This document shows, one piece after another, positions 20,074-35,877 of a stretch of 64,000 nt of DNA; within the stretch, counting starts at the first letter, position 1; the number at the start of each line of letters is the position of its first letter. Source of the stretch: a phage; the sequence record PZ091942.1. One strand, written 5' to 3'. The notes under the pieces are model-generated. The model searched no databases and was not told the DNA's origin. It saw only the letters and a list, made by a program, of their open reading frames with translations. The translations under genes were made by a program, and so were the position numbers.

Positions 20074-20487
20074 ATGTCTGGGAAATTCCCCAACGTAAGC
20101 AAGAAATTGGCTTACCTCACGTATAAAGAAAACATTGATCTTCTGGTCAAACTTTATCCGGCTTCATTCAACAAGCAATTCCCTCTTCCTTTGGAGCTTA
20201 ACATCCATAAGGAGATCGCCCGTAAGACCGGTTGGTCAGCGGAGAAAACAAGCATGGTGCTCAACATCTGGACTACTCGTATGGAGTATGTGATGATGGC
20301 CTGTAGCACTGGTAAACGCTTCAAGCTGCACTCTGTAGCTATGAAGATCCGTAGTCCTATTGACCCTGAGCCAATGGCTGGGTTCAGCAGCCGTCTGAAA
20401 TCTTTCCGTGATCGTGGTCGTGTAGTGAAGTTTAAGCACGACTTCTCTTATAAGTTTGGATACGAAGCGTTCCAATTCGTTGTTTAA
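20074..20487 (+). CDS. ProQ/FinO-domain-like RNA-binding protein (putative)
   Basis: ORF track; by-eye alignment to E. coli ProQ N-terminal domain (LYPASF~RFPHCF, PLPLELNIHKEI~PLKIGIFQDL, SAEKTSMVLNIWTTRMEYV~SKTQLRSALRLYTSSWRYL). Confidence 0.55.
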   Translation: MSGKFPNVSKKLAYLTYKENIDLLVKLYPASFNKQFPLPLELNIHKEIARKTGWSAEKTSMVLNIWTTRMEYVMMACSTGKRFKLHSVAMKIRSPIDPEPMAGFSSRLKSFRDRGRVVKFKHDFSYKFGYEAFQFVV

Positions 20488-21140: not shown

Positions 21141-21241
21141 AAGAGCAGGTTATCCACAGATATTGGGTGATATCTATTTAATTGGCCTTAAAGCTTGGCT
21201 CTCTTAGGAGAGTCCTTTTTTAAGTTCAAAGAAGAGGTTGT

Positions 21242-21409
21242 ATGGATAATAAGTTGAAAGTTAAGTTCTTATTGGCAGCAATCTTTATTTGCTTAGCCAC
21301 CGTGGGGTTTGCCCGTGTGACTTCCTTTGTATCTTGTGAATTAAGCAAGAACAACAGAGGGTCTTATAACTGGCTTACCAATCAATGTGATAAACAGGAG
21401 AAGTTATGA
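21242..21409 (+). CDS. hypothetical small secreted protein (55 aa)
   Basis: ATG with AGAAGAGG SD; signal-like N-terminus; ATGA overlap with next gene. Confidence 0.45.
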   Translation: MDNKLKVKFLLAAIFICLATVGFARVTSFVSCELSKNNRGSYNWLTNQCDKQEKL

Positions 21410-21779: not shown

Positions 21780-23000
21780 ATGTTCCCTGTAACACTTCAA
21801 AGCTGGAAAGAATCAGAAGATGTTGTAACCGTCTGGCCTCCTTGTTATGGTTTCCTTAAAGCAGGTTACTATCAGGGTGGTGATTATGATGAAGATGATG
21901 AAGACGATGATCCTGACTACTACAACACGTATGACAGCAACTACGGCTGGAATATCCGCATCAAGGTGTGGAGTAAAAATATGATGGTTCGTCAAGGCAC
22001 TGCTGAAGAGAACGTTCTTGAGAATATGTTGCCTATGTCTGAAATCAAGTATATCTGGAACTCCGGAACACATCTTCCAGCTTACGGTGTAAGACGTTAT
22101 GGTGATACTGAATATATCGCTACTCAGTATTTCCGTGAAGGGTTAGAAAATGAAGACCCTCGTCCTCCTTCTCATGTGGAAACATGGGCAGAAGAAAACA
22201 ACCGTCCTGATATCACTGATCGTGTTGTTATGGAAACCTTTGCAGCATTCATGGATAAAGATCTTGACTCATGTCTGGTGTGGCATGAAGTAGGGTTCAT
22301 GGGTGTTTGCACTGATGGCTGTCCCGCTGATCGTGCTCTGTTCTATCTGATGTTGAATCGCACATTCTATACAGATGATGAAAAATCTGCTGTGTATGAA
22401 ATGTTGAACAAGATGTATAAGAAGGGCTGGTCTCCTTTAGCCTCTCTTGCATTCAGCCGACTTATCAACTCTTCAGTGGATGTATTCGGTAACGAACGTG
22501 TTGCTTTAACAGGGAATGATTACGATTCCTGTATCTTCCAAGCATCTCTGTATACAGTGGGTGTTGGTAGTACGATGATTGAGCCTCGCCAGACCAAATG
22601 GCGACAGTGTGAATACACTGAAGGTGAAGGCCACCTGCGTGATGAAGACTTCTCCAGTCTGATCTATCGCAGTGAAGGTGTTCGTGATTGTCGAGTGAAC
22701 AACTCGATGTTCTTGCCAATCCTTTTGCCTCAATATTGCCATCTGTCAGAAGATACCCGCCCAATCATCACAGAAAAGTCACTCTTGGTTGAATTTATCC
22801 GAGAGGTGACTGAATCTGAAACATCTTTTGCTAAAATTGTGTTCGGTTATAACTGGAACAATGAAACAGCTTCAGCTCGAAGCTACAACATGTATAACAT
22901 TATCAGTAGTATGTCCAATGGACTAACAGGTAGTAATTATACAGTACGTCCCTCAGAAGAGTGGGAAAACATTTTGGAAAAATTATTCTTCAATAAATAG
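21780..23000 (+). CDS. hypothetical protein (406 aa) with acidic patch
   Basis: ORF track; AGAGG SD; DYDEDDEDDDPDYY segment. Confidence 0.7.
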   Translation: MFPVTLQSWKESEDVVTVWPPCYGFLKAGYYQGGDYDEDDEDDDPDYYNTYDSNYGWNIRIKVWSKNMMVRQGTAEENVLENMLPMSEIKYIWNSGTHLPAYGVRRYGDTEYIATQYFREGLENEDPRPPSHVETWAEENNRPDITDRVVMETFAAFMDKDLDSCLVWHEVGFMGVCTDGCPADRALFYLMLNRTFYTDDEKSAVYEMLNKMYKKGWSPLASLAFSRLINSSVDVFGNERVALTGNDYDSCIFQASLYTVGVGSTMIEPRQTKWRQCEYTEGEGHLRDEDFSSLIYRSEGVRDCRVNNSMFLPILLPQYCHLSEDTRPIITEKSLLVEFIREVTESETSFAKIVFGYNWNNETASARSYNMYNIISSMSNGLTGSNYTVRPSEEWENILEKLFFNK

Positions 23001-23008
23001 AGGCGAAT

Positions 23009-23959
23009 ATGTCAATCTCCGCATCGACTGCTCCGGTAACACCATCAGAGGATTTTGGTGAGTCAGTGTTCAGAGGGCGAGCTTGTTTTGGTACTTTCAA
23101 CTGTCAGCATATGTATTCTGTTACAGACATTAACGGCGACAGTATCAATCGCTCAAACCTTCGTGACAGAACTTCAGAAATTGGAGTTATCAACTTCTGG
23201 CCTCACAACTTTTATGGCACACCAGCTAAAGATATCGAAAGAGCTTTAGTTGAAGCAACAGACATTTTTAACTCAATGTCTTGCTATAAAAACATGTTCT
23301 CTGTCACTTCGGTGAACTCAGTTGCCGTGAACCTTCGAGACCACCCAGCAGACAAGGTGTTTACTGGATTAATGACCCTCCGGAGTTATCTGGATGGGGA
23401 TTTTATGGGAATGGAGTTCCTTCAGGAAGGCGTTCAAGACAAGGAAGAGTTACTCAAGCGACAACGAATCGGCTTAGCTTTACGCTTAGCTGGTTTAAGT
23501 CGTAACTTCTTTGGTCGTTGGGATTATTCACACGATGTGGATACTGATGATGAATCAGCAGCGACCTATTTTAATGGTGACATGAGTGCAATTGCATTCT
23601 TGCCACTAGTCTGTACCACTGATGAATTTTCTGAAAACGTATGGGTTCAGAATGTGTTCGGTATTGACGATAACAGAGATGGTTATGTACGAAACCACAA
23701 TGACGGAGTTCTCCGCAGTATGGCTCGTCGTCGTGACCAAGACCCTGACTATTACGAAAGTATGAGTGAGTGGTTACGTCTCTGGTCAATGTGTGCAGGC
23801 CACAAACGTGAAGTATTAGATCAGCGTATGGACAGAATTACTGTTCAAAGTTTTATTGAACGTCTGATGCAAGCAGTACCTTCCTCAATGACACCAGAAG
23901 AAGCTGGTGCCCGTGTTGTTTCCCTTTTTGATGAACTCGTGGAGTATTACAATGACTAA
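23009..23959 (+). CDS. hypothetical protein (316 aa)
   Basis: ORF track; AGAGG SD. Confidence 0.7.
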   Translation: MSISASTAPVTPSEDFGESVFRGRACFGTFNCQHMYSVTDINGDSINRSNLRDRTSEIGVINFWPHNFYGTPAKDIERALVEATDIFNSMSCYKNMFSVTSVNSVAVNLRDHPADKVFTGLMTLRSYLDGDFMGMEFLQEGVQDKEELLKRQRIGLALRLAGLSRNFFGRWDYSHDVDTDDESAATYFNGDMSAIAFLPLVCTTDEFSENVWVQNVFGIDDNRDGYVRNHNDGVLRSMARRRDQDPDYYESMSEWLRLWSMCAGHKREVLDQRMDRITVQSFIERLMQAVPSSMTPEEAGARVVSLFDELVEYYND

Positions 23960-24758
23960 GCGTGCTTTCCTTATTGGTTCTGACCCTGAAATGTTTGTTC
24001 GTACCGCTTCTGGTATTATCACCTCTGTGGCTGGTAAGCTGGGCTGTTCCAAAGATAACAAAATCGATCTGGCCCCTGATGTTCGTCTTCAAGAAGACAA
24101 CGTTCTGGCTGAGTTCGATATTAACCCACAGAAAGGGTTTGAAGCGTTTGATGATAACATCCAGCGTGGTATTGATCTGACCAACAAAGTTCTCCATGAA
24201 CGTGGTATGGAAGCTGCACTTGGGATTAGCTCCCATGTGTACACTTCTGAAGAGCTGGAATCATTCCACCCGTCAGCCTTCGTATTTGGCTGTACTCCTG
24301 ATTTCAACGCCTTCACTGGTCAGAAAAACCCATCTCCGGTAGCGACAGACAAAGGTCTGCGTACCGCTGGAGGTCACGTTCACCTCGGTGTTACTGGTAC
24401 ACTGGAAATTAGTCGTCAGACTCAGATGATGCTGGGTGTGCTGTGCGATTACTTCCTGTCACTTCCAGCGGTTGTGATGGACAAGGACACTCGTCGTAAA
24501 GAGCTTTACGGCAAGGCATCTGCGATTCGTTATAAAGATTACGGTATTGAATATCGTTCTCTGTCAAACTTCTGGATTGGTGAACAGTCCACTCGTAAGT
24601 TTGTTTACGATCAAGTTGATAAGGTTATTCAGGGCTGTGACATGGAAACCCTCATGTCTCTGCATTCCCGTTTGCCTATCGAAAAGCTTCACAACATCAT
24701 CAACAGCAACGATGTTAAAGAAGCGGATAAGTTCTCCTCTCAACTTCAGATTATCTAA
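23952..24758 (+). CDS. carboxylate-amine ligase-like protein (GCS2/amidoligase-like, tentative)
   Basis: Track ORF 23907..24758 trimmed to ATG 23952; motifs LIGSDPEMF and GGHVHLG resemble the GxExE / HVHxG signatures of GCS2-type ligases. Confidence 0.5.
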   Translation: MTKRAFLIGSDPEMFVRTASGIITSVAGKLGCSKDNKIDLAPDVRLQEDNVLAEFDINPQKGFEAFDDNIQRGIDLTNKVLHERGMEAALGISSHVYTSEELESFHPSAFVFGCTPDFNAFTGQKNPSPVATDKGLRTAGGHVHLGVTGTLEISRQTQMMLGVLCDYFLSLPAVVMDKDTRRKELYGKASAIRYKDYGIEYRSLSNFWIGEQSTRKFVYDQVDKVIQGCDMETLMSLHSRLPIEKLHNIINSNDVKEADKFSSQLQII

Positions 24759-24767
24759 GGTGTTATC

Positions 24768-25394
24768 GTGAGCCTGTTAAGAGATTTTCAGCATTATTAT
24801 TGCGGAACATGGATTGCCCAACGTGCAGAACGAGGGATTAATCTCCCTCTGTATGTACTCAACGTAAGCCAACCAAGCCGCTTTGGGGAAGATGACTTCT
24901 CCCACGAAGCCGAAATGGCCTTGACCTTTGAAGTTGAACGCTGGTCTAAGAACTCCGAAGGGCAGTTTGAGCGACAAGTTGTTCAGGGTATCCCTGTGTT
25001 TGATCAGAGTCTGATTCTGGAATCTCCAGATGTGGGCTATCTACAACATGGTAACAACATGGTAAGCTGGACTCATATCAACCCTGTTCGTCAGCGAGCT
25101 AAAGGTCTGATGGGGAACAAGCTGCGTGGTGCACCTCCTTCAATGGGACGTTCAATTCCGGGAGAGCTGGTGTATAACCTGTTCAACCCTGACTTTGAAG
25201 GTCTGGTTACTCGCTTCATCTACATTAACCCTGTTGATGGTAAAGTTTATTACAAAGGGGCGCTTGTAGGTCAAGTTGATCTTTCTGCTGGTTACGGCGA
25301 CAACGGTCGTCAATCTTTAAATCTTCTGGAGAAGTTCAAGCATATTTCTTCAGACCTGTCATCATATAATGTAGAGTTGGTGGAAACGTTATGA
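24768..25394 (+). CDS. hypothetical protein (208 aa)
   Basis: ORF track (GTG start, AAGGTG SD). Confidence 0.55.
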   Translation: MSLLRDFQHYYCGTWIAQRAERGINLPLYVLNVSQPSRFGEDDFSHEAEMALTFEVERWSKNSEGQFERQVVQGIPVFDQSLILESPDVGYLQHGNNMVSWTHINPVRQRAKGLMGNKLRGAPPSMGRSIPGELVYNLFNPDFEGLVTRFIYINPVDGKVYYKGALVGQVDLSAGYGDNGRQSLNLLEKFKHISSDLSSYNVELVETL

Positions 25395-26491
25395 CAACCG
25401 TAGCACAAGTTTTTGGATACCGTAATGCTCGTCTGGCTGAGCCGCACCCAAGCATCGCTTTTCAGTGTGGTATTGGCATCGAGCTGGAAGTTGAAGGAAC
25501 CTCTGAAATTGATGCAGACCTTTGGGTTTGTACTGAAGATGGTTCACTTCGTGATGGCTGTGAGATGGTTTGCGCACGGCCTTACAACGGTGTAGAATTG
25601 CTTCGTGCTATTAACAATCTGAGTGAAGCAGTACAAGACTCTGAAGCTGAAGGGACTTGGCGCTGCTCTACTCATGTTCATATGGATATGCGTGACGCTG
25701 ATAGTAACATCCTGAAGAAAGTAATTCTTGGATGGACGTTCTATGAAAAGATGATGTTCAAATGTTCTGGATACCATCGCTATCGTAGCAACTTCTGTCC
25801 TGCCTTTGCTGTTGTTCAAGCACAGGTAATGAATGCTTCCGCAGCGTTCAACCGAGATGGTGAAGCCTTCTTCAACACTCTTGTTAATAGCTGGGACAAG
25901 TACACCTCCCTTAACCTATTACCTCTGGCTCAGTTTGGTTCTGTTGAGTTTCGTATCTCAGAGCCGAAGTGGAAGAAAAGCCAACTCCTGAATCTGGTCA
26001 ACCGCTTCTTGGTTCTCAAGAAACTGGCTGTTGAATATGCAGATTTGGACAATGAAGCATACGTTGAGAAACTGAATGAGCTTCGCTTCGCTCCTATGAT
26101 TCAGTATCTACCTCTGGACTACACGCCTAATGATAATGATCTTACTGAAGGTTATCGTTTGGCTCGTGACATTCTGTTCTGTCGTGAACGTTCGGTTACT
26201 CTGGTTGGTCGTGTTCGTGTACAACAGACTGGCCCTGATGGTGAAGTCCTTATCAACTTGCGTGATATGGGTGACTTCTATGGTTTCTTGGGATATGTAC
26301 GGGGTAATGCCAACTCTGTTTACGAAGAGATCATGACATATTACACCCCTCAGATTGAAAACACTCGAATCGCAACGGTTCGTGAAATTCGTCACATGTT
26401 TACTTTGATGCGTGAATCAGGTAGCAGTGATGATAACGTCACTGGTTATATTCCAGACCATCTGGAAATGCAATTAGAACGACTGCTGTAA
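25391..26491 (+). CDS. GS/GCS2-like amidoligase
   Basis: ORF track; motifs GIGIELEVEG, EDGSLRDGCE, STHVHMD, GSVEFR typical of glutamine-synthetase-fold carboxylate-amine ligases. Confidence 0.6.
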   Translation: MTTVAQVFGYRNARLAEPHPSIAFQCGIGIELEVEGTSEIDADLWVCTEDGSLRDGCEMVCARPYNGVELLRAINNLSEAVQDSEAEGTWRCSTHVHMDMRDADSNILKKVILGWTFYEKMMFKCSGYHRYRSNFCPAFAVVQAQVMNASAAFNRDGEAFFNTLVNSWDKYTSLNLLPLAQFGSVEFRISEPKWKKSQLLNLVNRFLVLKKLAVEYADLDNEAYVEKLNELRFAPMIQYLPLDYTPNDNDLTEGYRLARDILFCRERSVTLVGRVRVQQTGPDGEVLINLRDMGDFYGFLGYVRGNANSVYEEIMTYYTPQIENTRIATVREIRHMFTLMRESGSSDDNVTGYIPDHLEMQLERLL

Positions 26492-26568
26492 CACAATGGG
26501 CGCTCTGATAAAGGGCGCATTTAAAGGTTAATTAGATGAAAGGGTTTACCCTTCAGGTGGATTAGAAA

Positions 26569-28602
26569 ATTTGTGGTATCGTATTAGCTGGGGGCAACAT
26601 GACCTCCACAGACTTAGACGTATTCAACCAGCTTCTGTATGCCGGAGTCTTCCGTGGTCAGCACTCAACTGGTGTGTTCGGTCAGCGTAAAAGTGATGCA
26701 AGAGTGTTTTCTTATAAAGAAGCACTTCCTTCTTATGCTTTCATGCTTCAGACAGAGTACACGAATATTACTAAGGGGCTTACGAACTATGTAGTTCCTC
26801 CAGCGTGGATTGTTGGTCATAGCCGACATGCCACTCGTGGCGCTGTCAATGCTCGAAATGCTCACCCGTTCTCTCATGGTGACATTACTCTGGTTCACAA
26901 TGGTACATTGATGGACCAAGAGCTGTTACCTGACCATAAGAACTTCGAAGTTGATAGCGAAAACATCTGTCATTCAATCAACACCATTGGTGCAGCAGAG
27001 ACTATCCAGAAGTTGGATGGTGCGTTCACTTTAATCTGGCATGATGCCAAAGACAATACTCTGCATATCATTCGTAACGATGAACGTCCTTTCCATCTGG
27101 CCCGTTGTGGTCTGGATTGGTTTGGTGCTTCTGAAGAAGATATGTTGATGTGGATTCTTAATCGTTCCAAGTCACACAAGAACCGTATCAATGATCACTT
27201 TGAATGTAAAGTGGGAACTGAATACATCTTTGATTTGTCTGGCAACCGTATGACTCTGACTCAAGAGGTGGAGCACAAGCTTCCGGTTTTTACGGTAACG
27301 AGTCGCTGGGGCGGCTATTACTCGAACTCCTCTCTATATCAGAACCAACAGACAAACAAATCAAGCAGCAGCACAAGCGACATTTACGGAAACAAAGACG
27401 ACAAGCCCGGCGTGACAAGCGGGGACATTCGCCGTCGTAAAGCGATTGAAGATCAGAATAAACTGGCTGCCGATCGTGGTCTTCCATATCGTCGTGATGG
27501 TCGTGTGGATATCATCCCTCACGAGTTCCATGCTTACAACAACACTGACCGTGGTAAGATGGTTGGTTATATTTATGATGATGCTGCTCAAGAATATGTT
27601 GAGGGTGATGTTCATAATGTAGCCAAGAGTGAGTACTTGAAGGCTCTCGAAAACCCAAAGGTAGTGTATCGCGGGACAGTTGCTTGTATCTCCGAAGTGG
27701 ACAGTATGATTCGCCTCGTACTCACTTCAGGGCTGTTTGTTGATGCTACCGATAAGGAGCCTCAAAGCACTACCGCTGATTTTGATGATGATATCCCTTT
27801 TGATTTAGAAGACTCCTTCATCACTAAGAATGGTGTGGAAGTCACTCGTAAGTTCTGGGAATCTCATTCTCATGGTGATTGTGGCGGTTGTGACAAGCAC
27901 ATTGAATGGAAAGATGCTAAGAAAGCTGTGTTCGCTTACCAAGCATATTGGCATCCGGCCTGTTTCGAAGCATTGTCCAAACCATCGGAAGAAGATGAAG
28001 ACATCCCTTTAGGTGTCTGTGCTGTGTGTGGCAATGTTAAAACTGATTTCGAGTTTGATAACGAAATGAGTAAACTTCGTGGTGAAGATATTTGTTATGT
28101 CTGTGCCAAAGAAATCAAAGACAAAGTGACTAACACTACATTGTCTGAAGGTTACATTTGGACTAAAGCAGTTGACACAACTAACCCACGCCGCCCTGAA
28201 GTAGCAGTTCGTGTTGATCAGCGTATGCTTAGCCGGATGATCGTAATGGTTAGCTCAGCTAAGCGTTCTGGAGACATTGAACTGTCTGATGTTCCTAATT
28301 CTTATTTGGAGAAACGTGGTGGTGATACTTATGCCATCTCTGTTTATGGTCCAAAGAATGCCCCAAAGGAGGTGCCCGCTGAGAAAGCGGAAACATTTCC
28401 AGAAAAACAAACAACTCTCCGAAAAACAGTTGTCAGTTACGATGGACAGCGAACAGCTGAGTTCACAAAAGCCCTCTGGACTTCAATTGGGTTTTGTGCA
28501 GTCTGTTATAAACAAATTCCGTGGCGTGATGCAGAAGTTTGCTCACTAAACAAAGAAAACAGGGTGATCTGTAATTCAGATTACTGTAAAGGTAAACATT
28601 AA
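26569..28602 (+). CDS. class-II glutamine amidotransferase domain protein with Cys-rich C-terminal region
   Basis: Track ORF 26599..28602; GHSRHATRG...NAHPF...HNG motifs; in-frame upstream codons ATT-TGT-GGT-ATC-GTA encode the canonical CGIV N-terminus, so start placed at ATT 26569 (AGGTGG SD 8 nt upstream); C-terminal half has several CxxC pairs. Confidence 0.7.
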   Translation: MCGIVLAGGNMTSTDLDVFNQLLYAGVFRGQHSTGVFGQRKSDARVFSYKEALPSYAFMLQTEYTNITKGLTNYVVPPAWIVGHSRHATRGAVNARNAHPFSHGDITLVHNGTLMDQELLPDHKNFEVDSENICHSINTIGAAETIQKLDGAFTLIWHDAKDNTLHIIRNDERPFHLARCGLDWFGASEEDMLMWILNRSKSHKNRINDHFECKVGTEYIFDLSGNRMTLTQEVEHKLPVFTVTSRWGGYYSNSSLYQNQQTNKSSSSTSDIYGNKDDKPGVTSGDIRRRKAIEDQNKLAADRGLPYRRDGRVDIIPHEFHAYNNTDRGKMVGYIYDDAAQEYVEGDVHNVAKSEYLKALENPKVVYRGTVACISEVDSMIRLVLTSGLFVDATDKEPQSTTADFDDDIPFDLEDSFITKNGVEVTRKFWESHSHGDCGGCDKHIEWKDAKKAVFAYQAYWHPACFEALSKPSEEDEDIPLGVCAVCGNVKTDFEFDNEMSKLRGEDICYVCAKEIKDKVTNTTLSEGYIWTKAVDTTNPRRPEVAVRVDQRMLSRMIVMVSSAKRSGDIELSDVPNSYLEKRGGDTYAISVYGPKNAPKEVPAEKAETFPEKQTTLRKTVVSYDGQRTAEFTKALWTSIGFCAVCYKQIPWRDAEVCSLNKENRVICNSDYCKGKH

Positions 28603-28613
28603 GAGGTGAAGTT

Positions 28614-28847
28614 ATGGAAGTTCGTAAATTGATGTTGGATAACGTTGTAACCACTCGACGTATCCCAATGACAAGCACAGGATGTGACAACCTTCGAGCT
28701 ATTCAGAAATGGATGCAAGAGGGTATTGGGGGACTGGTTAACTCTCCAGTTGAAATTCCTTTCCCAACCGTTATCAACAACGTGTTGGCTGACTATGTGA
28801 AATTGAAGGGGATTAAAGTTGAGCCTCATGTCAAGCAAGGGAGCTAA
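28614..28847 (+). CDS. hypothetical protein
   Basis: ORF track; GAGGTGA SD. Confidence 0.55.
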   Translation: MEVRKLMLDNVVTTRRIPMTSTGCDNLRAIQKWMQEGIGGLVNSPVEIPFPTVINNVLADYVKLKGIKVEPHVKQGS

Positions 28848-29049
28848 GCCTCACCTGACAATGCTGGAGTATCAACAACTCCGACTTCAACAACTGGTAA
28901 CGGAGCAGCGAAAGCTGTATCCGTTTGCTTTTAACCTAATTGATTCACCAAGCGATGACCAAGAAGACGAGATGTTCGCCAAGTATTGGGAAATCGAAGT
29001 TAAAATTCAATCCTGTCGTAACGAAATTCTTAAACTAAAAGGTATCTAA
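28819..29049 (+). CDS. hypothetical protein (start uncertain)
   Basis: ORF track; overlaps upstream gene; no clear SD. Confidence 0.4.
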   Translation: MSLMSSKGAKPHLTMLEYQQLRLQQLVTEQRKLYPFAFNLIDSPSDDQEDEMFAKYWEIEVKIQSCRNEILKLKGI

Positions 29050-29051
29050 AA

Positions 29052-30299
29052 ATGACTACTCGTATCCGTGTTCTTCCGTATGGCCCTTCTGATTCTGTTA
29101 ACGCTCTGGTAACTGCCATTAATGATACTATCCGTGATGAACGTATCAACGCTAACGTAATGGGTCTTCTTTCAGAGAACAGCCGCTGGCGTTCTCGTGA
29201 AGGTGATGTGGTTGTGAACTACGGGAACCGTCGCTATCCTGAATCATTCTTTGGTTCTGCAACTGTTCTGAACAGCACAGCATCTCTGCATATGGCAGCG
29301 AACAAGCGTCGTGCTTTTAGCGTGATGGACCAAGCAGGTGTTAAAACAGTTGAATATACAGATGTTCAATCAACTGCTCAAGAGTGGTCAAACTCTGGCA
29401 ATATTGTGTATGAGCGTCATGAACTGACTGGTCACTCTGGTTCAGGCATTGTTGTTGTAGAGCCTCGTGATTCGGTTGGTCAAGCTGAACTGTACACCAA
29501 AGGTATCCTAGGCCCACGTCGTGAATGGCGTGTCCATGTGTTCAAAGGTGCTATCACCTATGTTCAGAAAAAGATTCGTCGTAACGGTTATCGTGAAGAC
29601 CCTAACTATCGTGAAGATGTTCGTAACCATCACACTGGTTGGGTTTACTCAAGTTCCTTCACAGACGTTCCGAACGACACCTCTCTGATCAACGCAGTGA
29701 AAGCTGTTGAATCAATGGGTCTGGATTTCGGTGCAGTTGATATCATCACCAAAGGTCAAGAAGCATGGGTACTGGAAGTTAATACAGCACCGGGCCTAAC
29801 TGGCACAACTCTGGATATCTACCGTCATAATATCCTTGAGTTTGTTAAAGCTCAAAACCCTCTTTATACTCCTCAGTATAAAGTAGTTTACCAGACTCCT
29901 GTTGAAGCTCCAATCGAAGACGGAGACGGTGAGTTGGTTGCTGACAGTGAAAGTGCTGACGATGAAAACTTTGCACTGGAAGGCCAAGTAGCACAACCGG
30001 TTGATTCAGTTGATGTGGTTCCTGAAGAAATGCAACTGGAAGGTCAGATGAATACTCAAACTATTCGTAATGCACCTACTGGTTATGTGTTGTCTCGTGG
30101 TTATTGGATTGCCAACATCCGTCATGTTCATAACAACCTGCAACCAAATGCAATGGCTGCCAATGTCATTCTGTTCTGTGATGGTCGTAACTTCTACCGC
30201 TCTGGTTGGAACGTTCCGGTCAATCCAGTCCAGATTCATAACCCTCGCAAGTTAGAATCTGTCAATGTTGAAGGTAGTGAAGTAGCAGTAACTCTGTAA
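29052..30299 (+). CDS. ATP-grasp family ligase
   Basis: ORF track; motifs HSGSGIVVVEP, DFGAVDII, EVNTAPGLTG matching ATP-grasp (RimK/GshB-like) fold. Confidence 0.7.
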   Translation: MTTRIRVLPYGPSDSVNALVTAINDTIRDERINANVMGLLSENSRWRSREGDVVVNYGNRRYPESFFGSATVLNSTASLHMAANKRRAFSVMDQAGVKTVEYTDVQSTAQEWSNSGNIVYERHELTGHSGSGIVVVEPRDSVGQAELYTKGILGPRREWRVHVFKGAITYVQKKIRRNGYREDPNYREDVRNHHTGWVYSSSFTDVPNDTSLINAVKAVESMGLDFGAVDIITKGQEAWVLEVNTAPGLTGTTLDIYRHNILEFVKAQNPLYTPQYKVVYQTPVEAPIEDGDGELVADSESADDENFALEGQVAQPVDSVDVVPEEMQLEGQMNTQTIRNAPTGYVLSRGYWIANIRHVHNNLQPNAMAANVILFCDGRNFYRSGWNVPVNPVQIHNPRKLESVNVEGSEVAVTL

Positions 30300-30325
30300 T
30301 TAAATTAAACAAAAAGGAATTTGTA

Positions 30326-30568
30326 ATGTTGTCTATCGAAGATTTGATCAGCCGTGGAATGACCGAAGAAAAAGAGCCTCTGATTGTAGGCTCTCGTAAA
30401 GCTATTAACCAACTCTGTGAAGAGTTTGGCATCACAAACAAGAGAATGATTGGTAATCAGTTCTCTGCAATCATCACCTTCCTCAAACGAGGTGATAAAT
30501 ATTCAATGGAATGTGTTGAGCGTATCATCGCAATTGCACAAGAAGATAAGGGAGTAACAACTCTGTGA
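30326..30568 (+). CDS. hypothetical protein
   Basis: ORF track; AAAGGAA SD. Confidence 0.55.
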   Translation: MLSIEDLISRGMTEEKEPLIVGSRKAINQLCEEFGITNKRMIGNQFSAIITFLKRGDKYSMECVERIIAIAQEDKGVTTL

Positions 30569-30750
30569 ATAAATATACAATCATGTTTCGTACAGTATCA
30601 GCAGAAGGGAATATTCAATCTCTGGACATTCAAGCAGACCGCTTTGAATCACTTGGAACAAATGTTAATTTCTTCCGAGGTGCAGAGCTAGTAGGTATGT
30701 TCCAATCTGATGTATTGACTGGTGTGATCAAACACTTCGAAGTAGAATAA
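30565..30750 (+). CDS. hypothetical protein
   Basis: ORF track (GTG start overlapping upstream stop). Confidence 0.45.
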   Translation: MNKYTIMFRTVSAEGNIQSLDIQADRFESLGTNVNFFRGAELVGMFQSDVLTGVIKHFEVE

Positions 30751-30807
30751 TTTGCTTTAGCCTCTTCGAAAGAGGGGGCTAGTTCGAATTTAACTGGAGG
30801 TTGTAAA

Positions 30808-31224
30808 ATGGTTGATAATAAACTGGATATGTTTAAAAGTCGTATCTTAGATGTAGAGTATTCCAAAAACCTCTTTGAGAAACATAAGAAAGAGGCAAAG
30901 GAAGAATTAGAAAGTCTTCTGAAAGATGAAGAGATTCCACTCTTTAATCGCTGGTGCCTGTTTATGGAGCACAGCTCCCTTTTCCCTGTGGCTTCTAGCT
31001 CTATCAGCAGAGCTGTTAACTATGCAGTAGACCGTTATTATGACTTGGAGAGATATCGAACCTACACCCTCTCTGATATTTTTGAAGAGTATTGGTTCAA
31101 GGAAAAAGAATTGTCGAACAGTGATCTTGTGGAAGCTGTTAAGGAGAGTTTTGAACTAATCTCTGAAAAAGATGTTCGATCAATCATCTTCTCCGGATAT
31201 TCTGGTTTCCTATACGATTGGTAG
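30808..31224 (+). CDS. hypothetical protein
   Basis: ORF track; GGAGG SD. Confidence 0.6.
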   Translation: MVDNKLDMFKSRILDVEYSKNLFEKHKKEAKEELESLLKDEEIPLFNRWCLFMEHSSLFPVASSSISRAVNYAVDRYYDLERYRTYTLSDIFEEYWFKEKELSNSDLVEAVKESFELISEKDVRSIIFSGYSGFLYDW

Positions 31225-31230
31225 ACAGTC

Positions 31231-31428
31231 ATGAAAAAGATTTTACTCCTCCTCTCCTTATTCAGCGTATCAGCAATCGCCGCTGATGAATGCATCTCTA
31301 AAGATTCAGGGAGAGGTCAAATCGTAACTCAATGTGGCAGCCATGTAACGGTTGTCGATTCTATAACTCAAACAATTCTCGTGTGTAACGGGACTTCTTG
31401 TACAAAAGAAATTCTAAACAAAAGGTAA
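31231..31428 (+). CDS. small secreted Cys-containing protein
   Basis: ORF track; signal-peptide-like N-terminus. Confidence 0.5.
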   Translation: MKKILLLLSLFSVSAIAADECISKDSGRGQIVTQCGSHVTVVDSITQTILVCNGTSCTKEILNKR

Positions 31429-31432
31429 TGTA

Positions 31433-31864
31433 ATGTCTGATAAAGTATTAGTTGCAACGTATGGTTCTCTTCGTAAAGGTCAACACAACCACGCTATCAA
31501 TGCTCGTGCCGGTGGTGTGTCTATTGGTGAAGGGTGGACAGTAAACAACTGTAACCTGTATCAGTATTGCACAGCATACTTCCCAAGTGTATCTCTGGTG
31601 CATGACAGCAATGGCAAGCCTGTTCGTGTAGAAGTCTTTGAAACAACCCAAGCTGGTCTGGAAGGTCCGTATGACGGTCTGGAAGGTTATCGTGGTAAAG
31701 ACAATCCGTACACCTTCTATAATCGTACACTGATTCCAGTAGTGCTGGATAATGGTGAAACTGTGGAAGCATGGATTTATCATATCGACGAAGAACAAGA
31801 TGTTCTGGTTGAATCTGGTGACTGGACAGCGTATCTGGCAGGTGAACAGGATGACAGTAACTGA
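31433..31864 (+). CDS. gamma-glutamyl cyclotransferase (AIG2/GGCT-like)
   Basis: ORF track; N-terminal VATYGSLRKG motif and downstream Glu (EAWIYH). Confidence 0.7.
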   Translation: MSDKVLVATYGSLRKGQHNHAINARAGGVSIGEGWTVNNCNLYQYCTAYFPSVSLVHDSNGKPVRVEVFETTQAGLEGPYDGLEGYRGKDNPYTFYNRTLIPVVLDNGETVEAWIYHIDEEQDVLVESGDWTAYLAGEQDDSN

Positions 31865-34428: not shown

Positions 34429-35877
34429 ATGATTAAGATTCCATTGTCTGAATTGAACCTTCAAGAAGGAGAAGCCCTCAGTGTAGGGCTTGACCTAATT
34501 CGTAATTTGATCAGAGATAACGTAGTCCCTGATGGTATCTATCCTGTCATTGCAGGTGGTGCTATCCGTGATACGTTCTTCCAAAATCGAACTCCGAATG
34601 ATGTTGATATCTTCCTAGTTCAAGGAGGGCTTCGTTGGAACACTCGTCAGGAAAACAGCCCTGCTAACGTAGGTAATGCTGCACTTTTCCTTGACAACTT
34701 CTTATCTTGGACAGAAAGTAAGGGGCTTCAGGTTACATCTCGACTAATTCAGCCTGTTAACGGGACAACCTATGCTGAAGCGCTTTTCACTTTCCAAGAG
34801 ATTCTGGAAATTGAGATTGATCAAGTTAAAATCCAGATGATGATTAATCTACCTTTGGATATGGATACTTTAAGCCGTCGCTTCCCTATGATCTGTCAAG
34901 GGTTTATGACTCTTGGTAATCTGTATGTGTCAAACGAAGGTTTGTTTGCAATGTCATACACTCGTGACATTCCTGTGGTATCTAGTCGTGAAATGAAGTA
35001 CGTTCACAAGAAGTGGCCTGAAGCAACTGTTGCAGTTTATAGCAGTTCTACCGAATATATGCACCTTGCAATGGGAGCTTTCGGTGAGCCAGAAGTTCAC
35101 CTGATTAGTGATTTAGTTGGACCTATGGCTGGTGTAAATTTATATCAGAATCAGCGTCGTCATTATACCCTGAAGATGATGGAAACTATATTAAACATTC
35201 CTCAGGAAAGGGGTCGTAGTTATCTGGACGAGGAAGTTAACCTACAGACAGAATGGTCTAGTGGATTAACCACTATCGGTGCTGAAGCAATCACACAACC
35301 TTGGACTCCGGGAACCAACAGACGTGACTCTTGGCAACAGGAAGTCCCAAGATTCGCAGCCCCTTCTACAATGGACCCTCGTAATACTTTTAATGGCAGT
35401 TTTGGTAGTGCACGTTCTTCTGGGACGGACACCCACAACCGTACATGGCATGTTCAAGGGGGAACTGCTCGTCCTATTCCTTCTCCGTCAATGGGTGATT
35501 TACAGCGTTCTCGTCGTTCATGGGAAACAGTAAGCTCAGTTGTTCAGGGTCTACGTGCTGGTGATATAGAACGTGTAGAAGTTGGTGATTTGCCAACCCC
35601 TATGGAAGATCGAGTGTCAACTATAGCGGCTCGTGAAGCTGCTCGTGTTGGTTTTCCATCTTTAGCTAATGATGCTAACAATACTCCTCGACCTGTCGGT
35701 CGTCGTAACGGTCTGGCTCACTCTGACACTGCACTTGGTGCAGAACTTCGAGCTGCTGCTCGTGAACTATCTGGTGAGCTTCATAACAACTTAGCAGGTG
35801 TTACACTATCTCGTGAAACAGCTCGCAACATGATTAACAATTTGGCATCATCTGTACAAGGAAATAGAAACTCATGA
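34429..35877 (+). CDS. Pol-beta superfamily nucleotidyltransferase (CCA-adding/poly(A) polymerase-like head domain)
   Basis: ORF track; IAGGAIRD-x9-DVDIF matches GGxVRD...DxD head-domain motif; C-terminal half is R/S/G/T-rich low complexity. Confidence 0.55.
   Translation: MIKIPLSELNLQEGEALSVGLDLIRNLIRDNVVPDGIYPVIAGGAIRDTFFQNRTPNDVDIFLVQGGLRWNTRQENSPANVGNAALFLDNFLSWTESKGLQVTSRLIQPVNGTTYAEALFTFQEILEIEIDQVKIQMMINLPLDMDTLSRRFPMICQGFMTLGNLYVSNEGLFAMSYTRDIPVVSSREMKYVHKKWPEATVAVYSSSTEYMHLAMGAFGEPEVHLISDLVGPMAGVNLYQNQRRHYTLKMMETILNIPQERGRSYLDEEVNLQTEWSSGLTTIGAEAITQPWTPGTNRRDSWQQEVPRFAAPSTMDPRNTFNGSFGSARSSGTDTHNRTWHVQGGTARPIPSPSMGDLQRSRRSWETVSSVVQGLRAGDIERVEVGDLPTPMEDRVSTIAAREAARVGFPSLANDANNTPRPVGRRNGLAHSDTALGAELRAAARELSGELHNNLAGVTLSRETARNMINNLASSVQGNRNS

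Follow-up and report, generated by a model that had tools for sequence, protein, structure and literature searches.

A gene block known as the amidoligase cassette has been described in phages phiEco32, LUZ24/PaP3/tf, RIO-1, PA11, CW02, and 7-11. Its existence was reportedly predicted by Iyer et al. in 2009, as that work is quoted by later papers. Subsequent genome papers have named it a "peptidoglycan modification cassette" or "module"; others have taken it to change the cell wall against superinfection or to consist of auxiliary genes of nitrogen metabolism. Three mutually incompatible readings have been published (modification of the cell wall, a role in nitrogen metabolism, and one in secondary metabolites), to which a possible link with restriction resistance would add a fourth, and the substrate has been a matter of guesswork for more than 15 years. 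Full-text literature searches found no biochemical or genetic test of any cassette function.

Here we describe a cluster within a 64,000-nucleotide stretch of phage DNA (sequence record PZ091942.1), the whole of which is called the window. The cluster is the already described amidoligase cassette. A sequence-only reading of the window had pointed to comparative-genomics predictions for such neighbourhoods and had held that the acceptor could not be read from the sequence; both statements agree with the literature, in which the cassette is described by bioinformatics alone and the acceptor is a subject of hypotheses. What is added here are three co-conserved non-catalytic members, a Peptidase_C26 hydrolase where the cyclotransferase is missing, an ATT start for the amidotransferase gene, the domains of the amidotransferase tail, and a 620-bp insertion. 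Our tentative reading, to which we give somewhat less than an even chance, is that this middle-gene cassette, at roughly 23.0-31.9 kb of the window, encodes a multi-protein cytoplasmic amide-ligation pathway that would operate through transient gamma-glutamyl intermediates and whose substrate is more likely to be held by a partner or macromolecule that the phage encodes.

The cassette enzymes and their source phage

Along its entire length, the 8-kb region of the cluster matches Escherichia phage ECBP2 (Suseptimavirus, Gordonclarkvirinae) at 96.4% identity. About 20 further phiEco32-like coliphages, the BASEL isolates Bas86-88 among them, are 89-96% identical to the 8-kb region, Bas88 at 96%. 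Judged by these identities, the window is that of a phiEco32-like coliphage; the class II glutamine amidotransferase (GAT-II, or GAT) it encodes is about 67% identical to that of phiEco32 itself.

By family assignment, the parts present are three ATP-dependent carboxylate-amine ligases (two glutamine-synthetase-like and one RimK-like), the GAT-II, and a gamma-glutamyl(amine) cyclotransferase (GGCT) (Table 1). The five open reading frames (ORFs) for which the sequence-only reading had proposed these families all lie on the + strand and belong to them by a profile hidden Markov model (HMM) check, four above Pfam cut-offs and the ATP-grasp ligase by way of PHROG 2599, RimK structures, and an orthologue in Proteus phage P59. 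In ECBP2, the RefSeq labels are "COOH.NH2 ligase", "amidoligase enzyme", "L-glutamine-D-fructose-6-phosphate aminotransferase", "ribosomal protein S6 glutaminyl transferase", and "gamma-glutamyl cyclotransferase". The family assignments support the earlier view of the cluster as a toolkit by which amide bonds of a gamma-glutamyl or peptide-like kind would be formed and taken off again.

Table 1. Features of the cassette and its upstream flank (positions in the window), with the Peptidase_C26 genes of two related loci
Feature	Position	Strand	Size	Match or character
Terminator-like hairpin with T-run	21197..21214	+		Consensus scan; 7-bp stem, CTTTTTT tail
gp88-like protein, acidic	21780..23000	+	406 aa	PHROG 13063, 6e-203
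gp87-like protein	23009..23959	+	316 aa	PHROG 13102
COOH-NH2 ligase type 2 (COOH-NH2_lig)	23952..24758	+		Pfam PF14395, E 3e-8, 33.7 bits (cut-off 25)
gp85-like protein	24768..25394	+	208 aa	PHROG 4877
Amidoligase_2, second glutamine-synthetase-like ligase	25391..26491	+		Pfam PF12224, 2e-6, 28.4 bits (cut-off 22)
GAT leader	26540..26568	+		Hairpin AAGGG-TTTA-CCCTT (26540-26553); Shine-Dalgarno AGGTGGA (26555-26561), 7 nt before ATT
Class II (N-terminal nucleophile, Ntn) GAT, ATT start	26569..28602	+	677 aa	GATase_6, 1e-14
DUF7195 protein, small and basic	28614..28847	+	77 aa	Pfam PF23825, 1e-18
Small lineage-specific protein	28819..29049	+	76 aa	PHROG 13464
RimK-like ATP-grasp ligase	29052..30299	+	415 aa	PHROG 2599, 2e-171; acidic linker, extra C-terminal domain
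phiEco32 gp79 homologue	30326..30568	+		HMM E 6e-39 to phi32_79
Insertion: DUF7020 protein and 65-aa protein	30808..31428	+	620 bp	DUF7020: Pfam, 5e-25
GGCT, AIG2/GGACT	31433..31864	+		Pfam PF06094, 5e-16, 59.9 bits (cut-off 22.8)
Peptidase_C26, Pseudomonas phage TC6 (PA11-type)	L015 7032-7652			Pfam, 1e-16
Peptidase_C26, Vibrio phage phivp506	L020 8981-9673			Pfam, 1e-14

Distribution and conserved order

With each of the window proteins as a seed, iterative HMM searches were run locally on 13 diverse loci, all picked for having a GAT gene: phiEco32, Pseudomonas tf and TC6, Pseudoalteromonas RIO-1, Vibrio Vp_R1 and phivp506, Aeromonas 4_4572, Proteus P59, Xanthomonas DES1, Arthrobacter Laroye, and three IMG/VR contigs. 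Amidoligase_2 is present in all 13, the ATP-grasp ligase in 12, COOH-NH2_lig and GGCT in 11 each, and the gp85-like and DUF7195 proteins in 8 each. Amidoligase_2 and GAT-II are the invariant core of the cassette in this sample, and in Arthrobacter phage Laroye a minimal module consists of GGCT, Amidoligase_2, and GAT only. The grouping of a GAT, an ATP-grasp, and a GGCT gene in one block, as in the window, is also seen in phiEco32, tf, RIO-1, Vp_R1, 4_4572, and P59. A common order, namely a ~300-aa protein, COOH-NH2_lig, a ~200-aa protein, Amidoligase_2, GAT, DUF7195, and the ATP-grasp ligase, is found in the window, Vp_R1, 4_4572, P59, a contig of a Bacteroidales metagenome-assembled genome, and ENA contigs. 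The clustering is not due to chance: these enzymes are found together again and again in phage lineages that are unrelated, and their order is often kept.

Among the records that were matched in the phage collection, essentially all those of phiEco32-like phages of Escherichia/Shigella carry the cassette. It is also present in therapeutic Pseudomonas phages of the LUZ24 type, in marine Zobellviridae, and in large podophages of Vibrio, Aeromonas, and Proteus. Occupying about 10% of a 77-kb genome, it is among the most widely conserved enzyme blocks without an assigned function in podophages.

This fixed synteny bears on the proposal that the cassette consists of auxiliary metabolic genes, which would divert the host's metabolism of nitrogen, glutamine, glutathione, or polyamines by making or breaking free small molecules and would have no dedicated target. 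The enzyme types do have relatives that act on free metabolites (glutamine synthetase, gamma-glutamylcysteine ligase, glutathione synthetase, GGCT, and PuuD), and such a role has been proposed in print for Phage-ZRK32 and for OM43 phages. However, the published evidence for a role in nitrogen metabolism is indirect, consisting of growth stimulation after addition of the phage. Furthermore, constant gene order, three non-catalytic partners, and a GAT tail made up of binding modules are unlike a scattered metabolic gene, and the ligases have diverged too far from housekeeping enzymes to act as simple boosters. We consider this explanation highly improbable.

The ligases and the gamma-glutamyl-cleaving enzymes

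Both glutamine-synthetase-like ligases carry what sequence comparison identifies as the metal/ATP-binding motifs of their superfamily: an acidic pair, H-x-H, and E-x-R. In COOH-NH2_lig, which matches PHROG 3815 at 4e-112 and whose Pfam family is described as "Phage phiEco32-like COOH.NH2 ligase-type 2", residues E13, H142, H144, E200, and R202 do not vary among 14 homologues, and D11 is nearly invariant. The corresponding invariant residues of Amidoligase_2 (PHROG 7469, 2e-143) are E31, E33, H95, H97, E186, and R188. The two genes are separated by a single gene, that of the gp85-like protein. Sequence and profile searches of the PDB with both ligases found no relative.

The ATP-grasp ligase falls just below the Pfam RimK cut-off (20.1 bits against 21). 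Its alignment with solved RimK structures (E 0.004, ~60 residues) covers the VDI...EVN motif for Mg binding, and its P59 orthologue, to which it is linked by an HMM match with an E of 1e-65, exceeds the cut-off (6e-8, 32.9 bits). There is also a weak R2K_2 match and a weak similarity to D-Ala-D-Ala ligase.

These relationships bear on the alternative that the cassette modifies proteins through glutamylation or the attachment of a peptide tag, along the lines of RimK, PafA/Dop, or the R2K ATP-grasps, with either a host protein (S6, RNA polymerase) or a phage protein as the target. RimK enzymes are the closest solved relatives of the ATP-grasp ligase, the glutamine-synthetase-like ligases as a group include Pup ligase, and candidate modification sites exist in the gp85-like protein, in its invariant loop, and in the gp87-like protein, at its invariant Cys (see below). 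Along with the weak R2K_2 match, there is a published prediction that phage R2K.2-family ATP-grasps modify host proteins, although it was made for those enzymes generally and not for this cassette. On the other hand, the RimK similarity is itself weak, GAT and GGCT belong to no known protein-tagging system, and no Pup-like tag is present. As candidates for a Pup-like or LysW-like carrier, the DUF7195 protein and the ORF at 21406 were rejected, since their C-termini are not conserved. Protein modification is, in our view, unlikely.

GGCT matches PHROG 2520 at 1e-42, and its translation contains a YGSLRKG motif and an LEGY segment. In both sampled loci that lack GGCT, TC6 and phivp506, a Peptidase_C26 gamma-glutamyl hydrolase is encoded within the cassette, a short distance upstream of GAT; about 59 phage records carry a Peptidase_C26 gene. 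From gamma-glutamyl amides, C26 enzymes release glutamate and GGCTs release 5-oxoproline. Given that both cleave gamma-glutamyl amides, release of an amine from a gamma-glutamyl intermediate looks to be a required step.

The glutamine amidotransferase

The assignment of the 26.6-28.6 kb ORF to Pfam GATase_6/7 is above the curated cut-off. The mechanical ORF list and the RefSeq annotation of ECBP2 place its start at ATG 26599, a choice that would remove the catalytic N-terminal Cys. Several lines of evidence favor the ATT at 26569 instead. Following a TAG, the frame reads AAA ATT TGT GGT ATC GTA (K I C G I V), and in tf, RIO-1, and three metagenomic relatives the start is an ATG TGT at the position aligned with the ATT TGT of the window, just where the sequence-only reading had put CGIV. 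The consensus of 76 homologues begins MCGIV. The phiEco32 gene has no downstream ATG, and its GenBank coding sequence starts at ATT, as does that of Bas88. Finally, a Shine-Dalgarno sequence lies upstream, within a leader of about 60 nt that is identical in the window, phiEco32, KBNP1711, and 4E8 (all Gordonclarkvirinae), whose coding DNA has diverged. Together, the ATT start, the strong Shine-Dalgarno sequence, the hairpin, and the conserved leader suggest translational control of GAT. The correct ATT start is required for anyone wishing to express the active enzyme.

The residues for glutamine/gamma-glutamyl binding and for the oxyanion hole (R86, N111-G112, and D129) are all kept. In the AlphaFold model (predicted local distance difference test, pLDDT, 87), a GAT domain of residues 1-244 is followed by a disordered linker and a helix. 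Next come a beta-barrel (~312-392) and a pair of zinc-binding modules, then another small beta domain, and last a third zinc module. The barrel is predicted to be OB/S1-like and the zinc modules zinc-ribbon/LIM-like, in keeping with the Cys-rich C-terminus pointed out in the sequence-only reading, whose Cys pairs are conserved in the 76 homologues. The barrel is acidic, as is the first zinc region, and the two modules at the end are basic; with no clear support for nucleic-acid binding from this charge distribution, the modelled tail domains are read as binding modules only. After residue 244, the model contains no synthase domain of the GlmS, PurF, AsnB, or GltS kind. The acceptor chemistry must therefore reside in a partner, of which Amidoligase_2 is the invariant one.

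Non-catalytic partners and interleaved genes

The sequence-only reading had described the enzyme genes as interleaved with unknown ORFs. They are indeed interleaved, but three of the ORFs encode conserved cassette members, another encodes gp79, and the segment 30808-31428 is a lineage-specific insertion.

The gp87-like protein, always encoded directly upstream of the COOH-NH2 ligase, is by sequence comparison a conserved, non-annotated member of the cassette. It is homologous to the proteins encoded at the same place in phages of Proteus, Aeromonas, and Vibrio and in metagenome contigs (hhalign 95.9%, E 5e-9); against those of tf, TC6, and RIO-1, hhalign was not significant. In a joint, forced alignment, C26 (N-terminal, in a "CFG" context), R125, and Y226 are kept across 13 positional equivalents. 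For the gp85-like protein, encoded between the two ligase genes, the AlphaFold model (pLDDT 85.7) has two small SH3/Tudor/Sm-like beta-barrels and no enzyme-like match, so that a non-enzymatic fold is predicted. Its most conserved motif, the invariant PVRQRxKG..NK, falls in the sole low-confidence loop. A scan of metagenomic viral contigs with the gp85-like alignment returned only 8 close relatives. The DUF7195 protein, encoded directly after GAT, is also found in metagenome contigs L021 and L022.

Of the remaining genes, the gp79 homologue lies between the ATP-grasp and GGCT genes, and is embedded in the cassette but outside its chemistry. In phiEco32, gp79 is a middle-gene product that inhibits σ70 transcription (PMC12276001, PMC8948821) but stimulates that driven by gp36, a sigma factor of the phage. 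The insertion at 30808-31428 is missing in Bas88 and phiEco32 and has no homologues in the 13 loci; by this comparison it is a recent acquisition specific to ECBP2-like phages and not part of the cassette. Its 65-aa protein has a signal-peptide-like N-terminus (MKKILLLLSLFSVSAIAA...).

Boundaries and neighbouring genes

Directly 3' of the cassette lie genes for a primase/helicase, a DNA polymerase exonuclease subunit, and a dCTP deaminase. The cassette thus sits among the early/middle transcription and replication genes of a podophage, and in sampled lineages with the full cassette the primase/helicase gene is downstream of it, directly adjoining in most. The hairpin at 21197..21214 is probably the upstream boundary of the transcription unit of the cassette. 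A scan for σ70 promoters gave no more sites than were present in shuffled sequence. It is uncertain whether the gp88-like protein is a cassette member: it has no Pfam match, and in the HMM search of the 13 loci its homologues were confined to Gordonclarkvirinae (phiEco32) and three metagenomic relatives (L010-L012). Farther upstream, the window encodes a protein with a ProQ/FinO RNA-chaperone domain (20074-20487; Pfam 4e-6, just at the cut-off) and a single tRNA-Arg(TCT) (17927-18002).

The genomic setting matters for the published hypothesis that the target of the cassette is the stem peptide of peptidoglycan, which would be rebuilt or modified either to block superinfection or to ready the wall for lysis. 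The stem peptide has three unusual amide linkages, and both gamma-linked glutamate and amidated carboxylates occur in peptidoglycan. The hypothesis, which has been printed as such in genome papers, could also draw on the similarity, weak as it is, of the ATP-grasp ligase to D-Ala-D-Ala ligase. However, the neighbours of the cassette are middle, replication, and transcription genes rather than lysis genes. The cassette products are soluble and acidic, and there is no Mur-ligase-type, lipid II-related, or envelope-targeted protein among them. The cassette is also kept across hosts with different walls, with a reduced three-gene form in Arthrobacter phages, and the co-conserved barrel and zinc-finger proteins are left unexplained. 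As literature searches turned up no test of the hypothesis either, we judge a role in peptidoglycan to be improbable, though no more so than protein modification.

A proposed amide-ligation pathway

The preferred reading, a cytoplasmic amide-ligation pathway, can be set out in steps. A glutamine-synthetase-like ligase would activate a carboxylate, in the simplest case the gamma-carboxylate of glutamate, as an acyl-phosphate and couple it to an amine. GAT-II might dock on Amidoligase_2 and feed it ammonia from glutamine, so that a carboxylate would become a carboxamide; alternatively, GAT-II might hydrolyze a gamma-glutamyl amide as EgtC does. The ATP-grasp ligase would add an amino acid, either glutamate or a different one. 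The gamma-glutamyl handle would then be taken off, as 5-oxoproline by GGCT or as glutamate by the C26 hydrolase, freeing the amine. The gp87-like, gp85-like, and DUF7195 proteins, together with the barrel and zinc tail of GAT, may hold the substrate or assemble the complex. If these non-catalytic partners are substrate holders, then the substrate is more likely to be presented by a partner or macromolecule encoded by the phage than to be peptidoglycan. Precedents for a removable gamma-glutamyl handle include BtrJ/BtrG of butirosin synthesis, PuuA/PuuD, EgtA/EgtC, and gamma-glutamylmethylamide synthetase with N-methylglutamate synthase.

Several points weigh against this pathway. The sequence gives no substrate, and the literature searches found no biochemical test of any step. 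The glutamine-synthetase-like fold assigned to the two ligases is that implied by Pfam membership and motifs. The gp85-like, gp87-like, and DUF7195 proteins were undetected in some lineages. In addition, strict mutual exclusivity of GGCT and C26 is ruled out by Salinivibrio phage CW02 and Rhizobium phage RHph_N3_19, which have both. The cassette is genetically addressable, as BASEL phages Bas86-93 infect engineered E. coli K-12, and the refined list of parts can guide the choice of genes.

Restriction resistance and DNA modification

The BASEL paper reported that Gordonclarkvirinae are remarkably resistant to restriction-modification yet have no known modification pathway. An alternative to the pathway above is that the cassette modifies phage DNA or a nucleotide precursor with an aminoacyl or amide adduct and that this underlies the resistance. 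A lack of sites as the cause of the resistance is ruled out for EcoRI, EcoRV, and EcoKI, for which the window has 12, 25, and 8 sites, respectively, about the expected numbers. The position upstream of the primase/helicase gene in sampled full-cassette lineages and the predicted OB/S1-like barrel and zinc ribbons of the GAT tail would also fit. Nevertheless, DNA of U17, a LUZ24-like phage with the same cassette, is cut by 11 of 16 restriction enzymes, and the accessible portion of a nanopore study of the related phage Rembedalsseter mentions only nicks for that phage. The RefSeq annotation of ECBP2, which lists ThyX and dCTP deaminase, includes no hydroxymethylase, base kinase, transglycosylase, or other gene of a hydroxymethylpyrimidine pathway such as an amino-acid/polyamine transferase, a result that is based on annotation and not on a scan of every ORF. 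The OB barrel is acidic, and resistance in vivo could stem from an anti-restriction protein. DNA modification in this general form is quite unlikely in our estimate. A more specific form, in which a sparse or sequence-specific amide-linked mark (aminoacyl or gamma-glutamyl-derived) on phage DNA or a nucleotide precursor lies behind the resistance, is distinctly improbable. If true, it would mean that glutamine-synthetase-like ligases make a phage DNA modification of a chemically new class.

Two further observations concern restriction sites and candidate modification genes. Short sites are strongly avoided in the 64-kb window: CCWGG occurs 5 times against 74.5 expected and GATC 127 times against 238 expected, and 14 of the 64 six-base palindromes are absent (those of BamHI, PstI, KpnI, SacI, NcoI, and others). 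Between the polymerase exonuclease subunit and the dCTP deaminase, a 482-aa "nucleotidyltransferase" (34429-35877) is encoded that has no Pfam match and whose homologues among the sampled loci are confined to phiEco32 and one metagenomic relative. The BASEL paper flagged it as a possible DNA-modification gene.

Comparison with known systems

Outside phages, a gamma-glutamyl group that is installed and later removed as 5-oxoproline is found in butirosin synthesis, in which the installing enzyme BtrJ is an ATP-grasp ligase and the removing enzyme BtrG is AIG2-like; both enzyme types are present in the window. The butirosin pathway also has an acyl carrier protein, a decarboxylase, and an acyltransferase, none of which was found in the window cassette; in contrast, the cassette has two glutamine-synthetase-like ligases and a GAT-II. 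With the PuuA/PuuD, EgtA/EgtC, and gamma-glutamylmethylamide synthetase/N-methylglutamate synthase systems the similarity is at the level of superfamilies only, and the oxidases, methyltransferases, and further enzymes by which these pathways are defined are absent. The window GAT does resemble EgtC and similar stand-alone Ntn enzymes in having no fused synthase domain.

Two protein-modifying systems offer partial parallels. RimK, the S6 L-glutamate ligase, is the best solved relative of the ATP-grasp ligase and has in common with it the Mg/ATP-binding motif; however, the short match (E 0.004 over ~60 residues), a Pfam score below the cut-off, and the additional acidic linker and C-terminal domain set the phage protein apart, and S6 is no more than a candidate substrate. 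In pupylation, PafA and Dop are two paralogous enzymes of the carboxylate-amine ligase superfamily that occur side by side, as do the two ligases of the window, but the window has no Pup-like protein with a conserved C-terminal Gln/Glu, and GAT, ATP-grasp, and GGCT enzymes are foreign to pupylation. The closest counterpart remains the phiEco32-type cassette: the five families of enzymes are the same in the window, they are likewise set among middle and replication genes, and nothing essential differs between the two.

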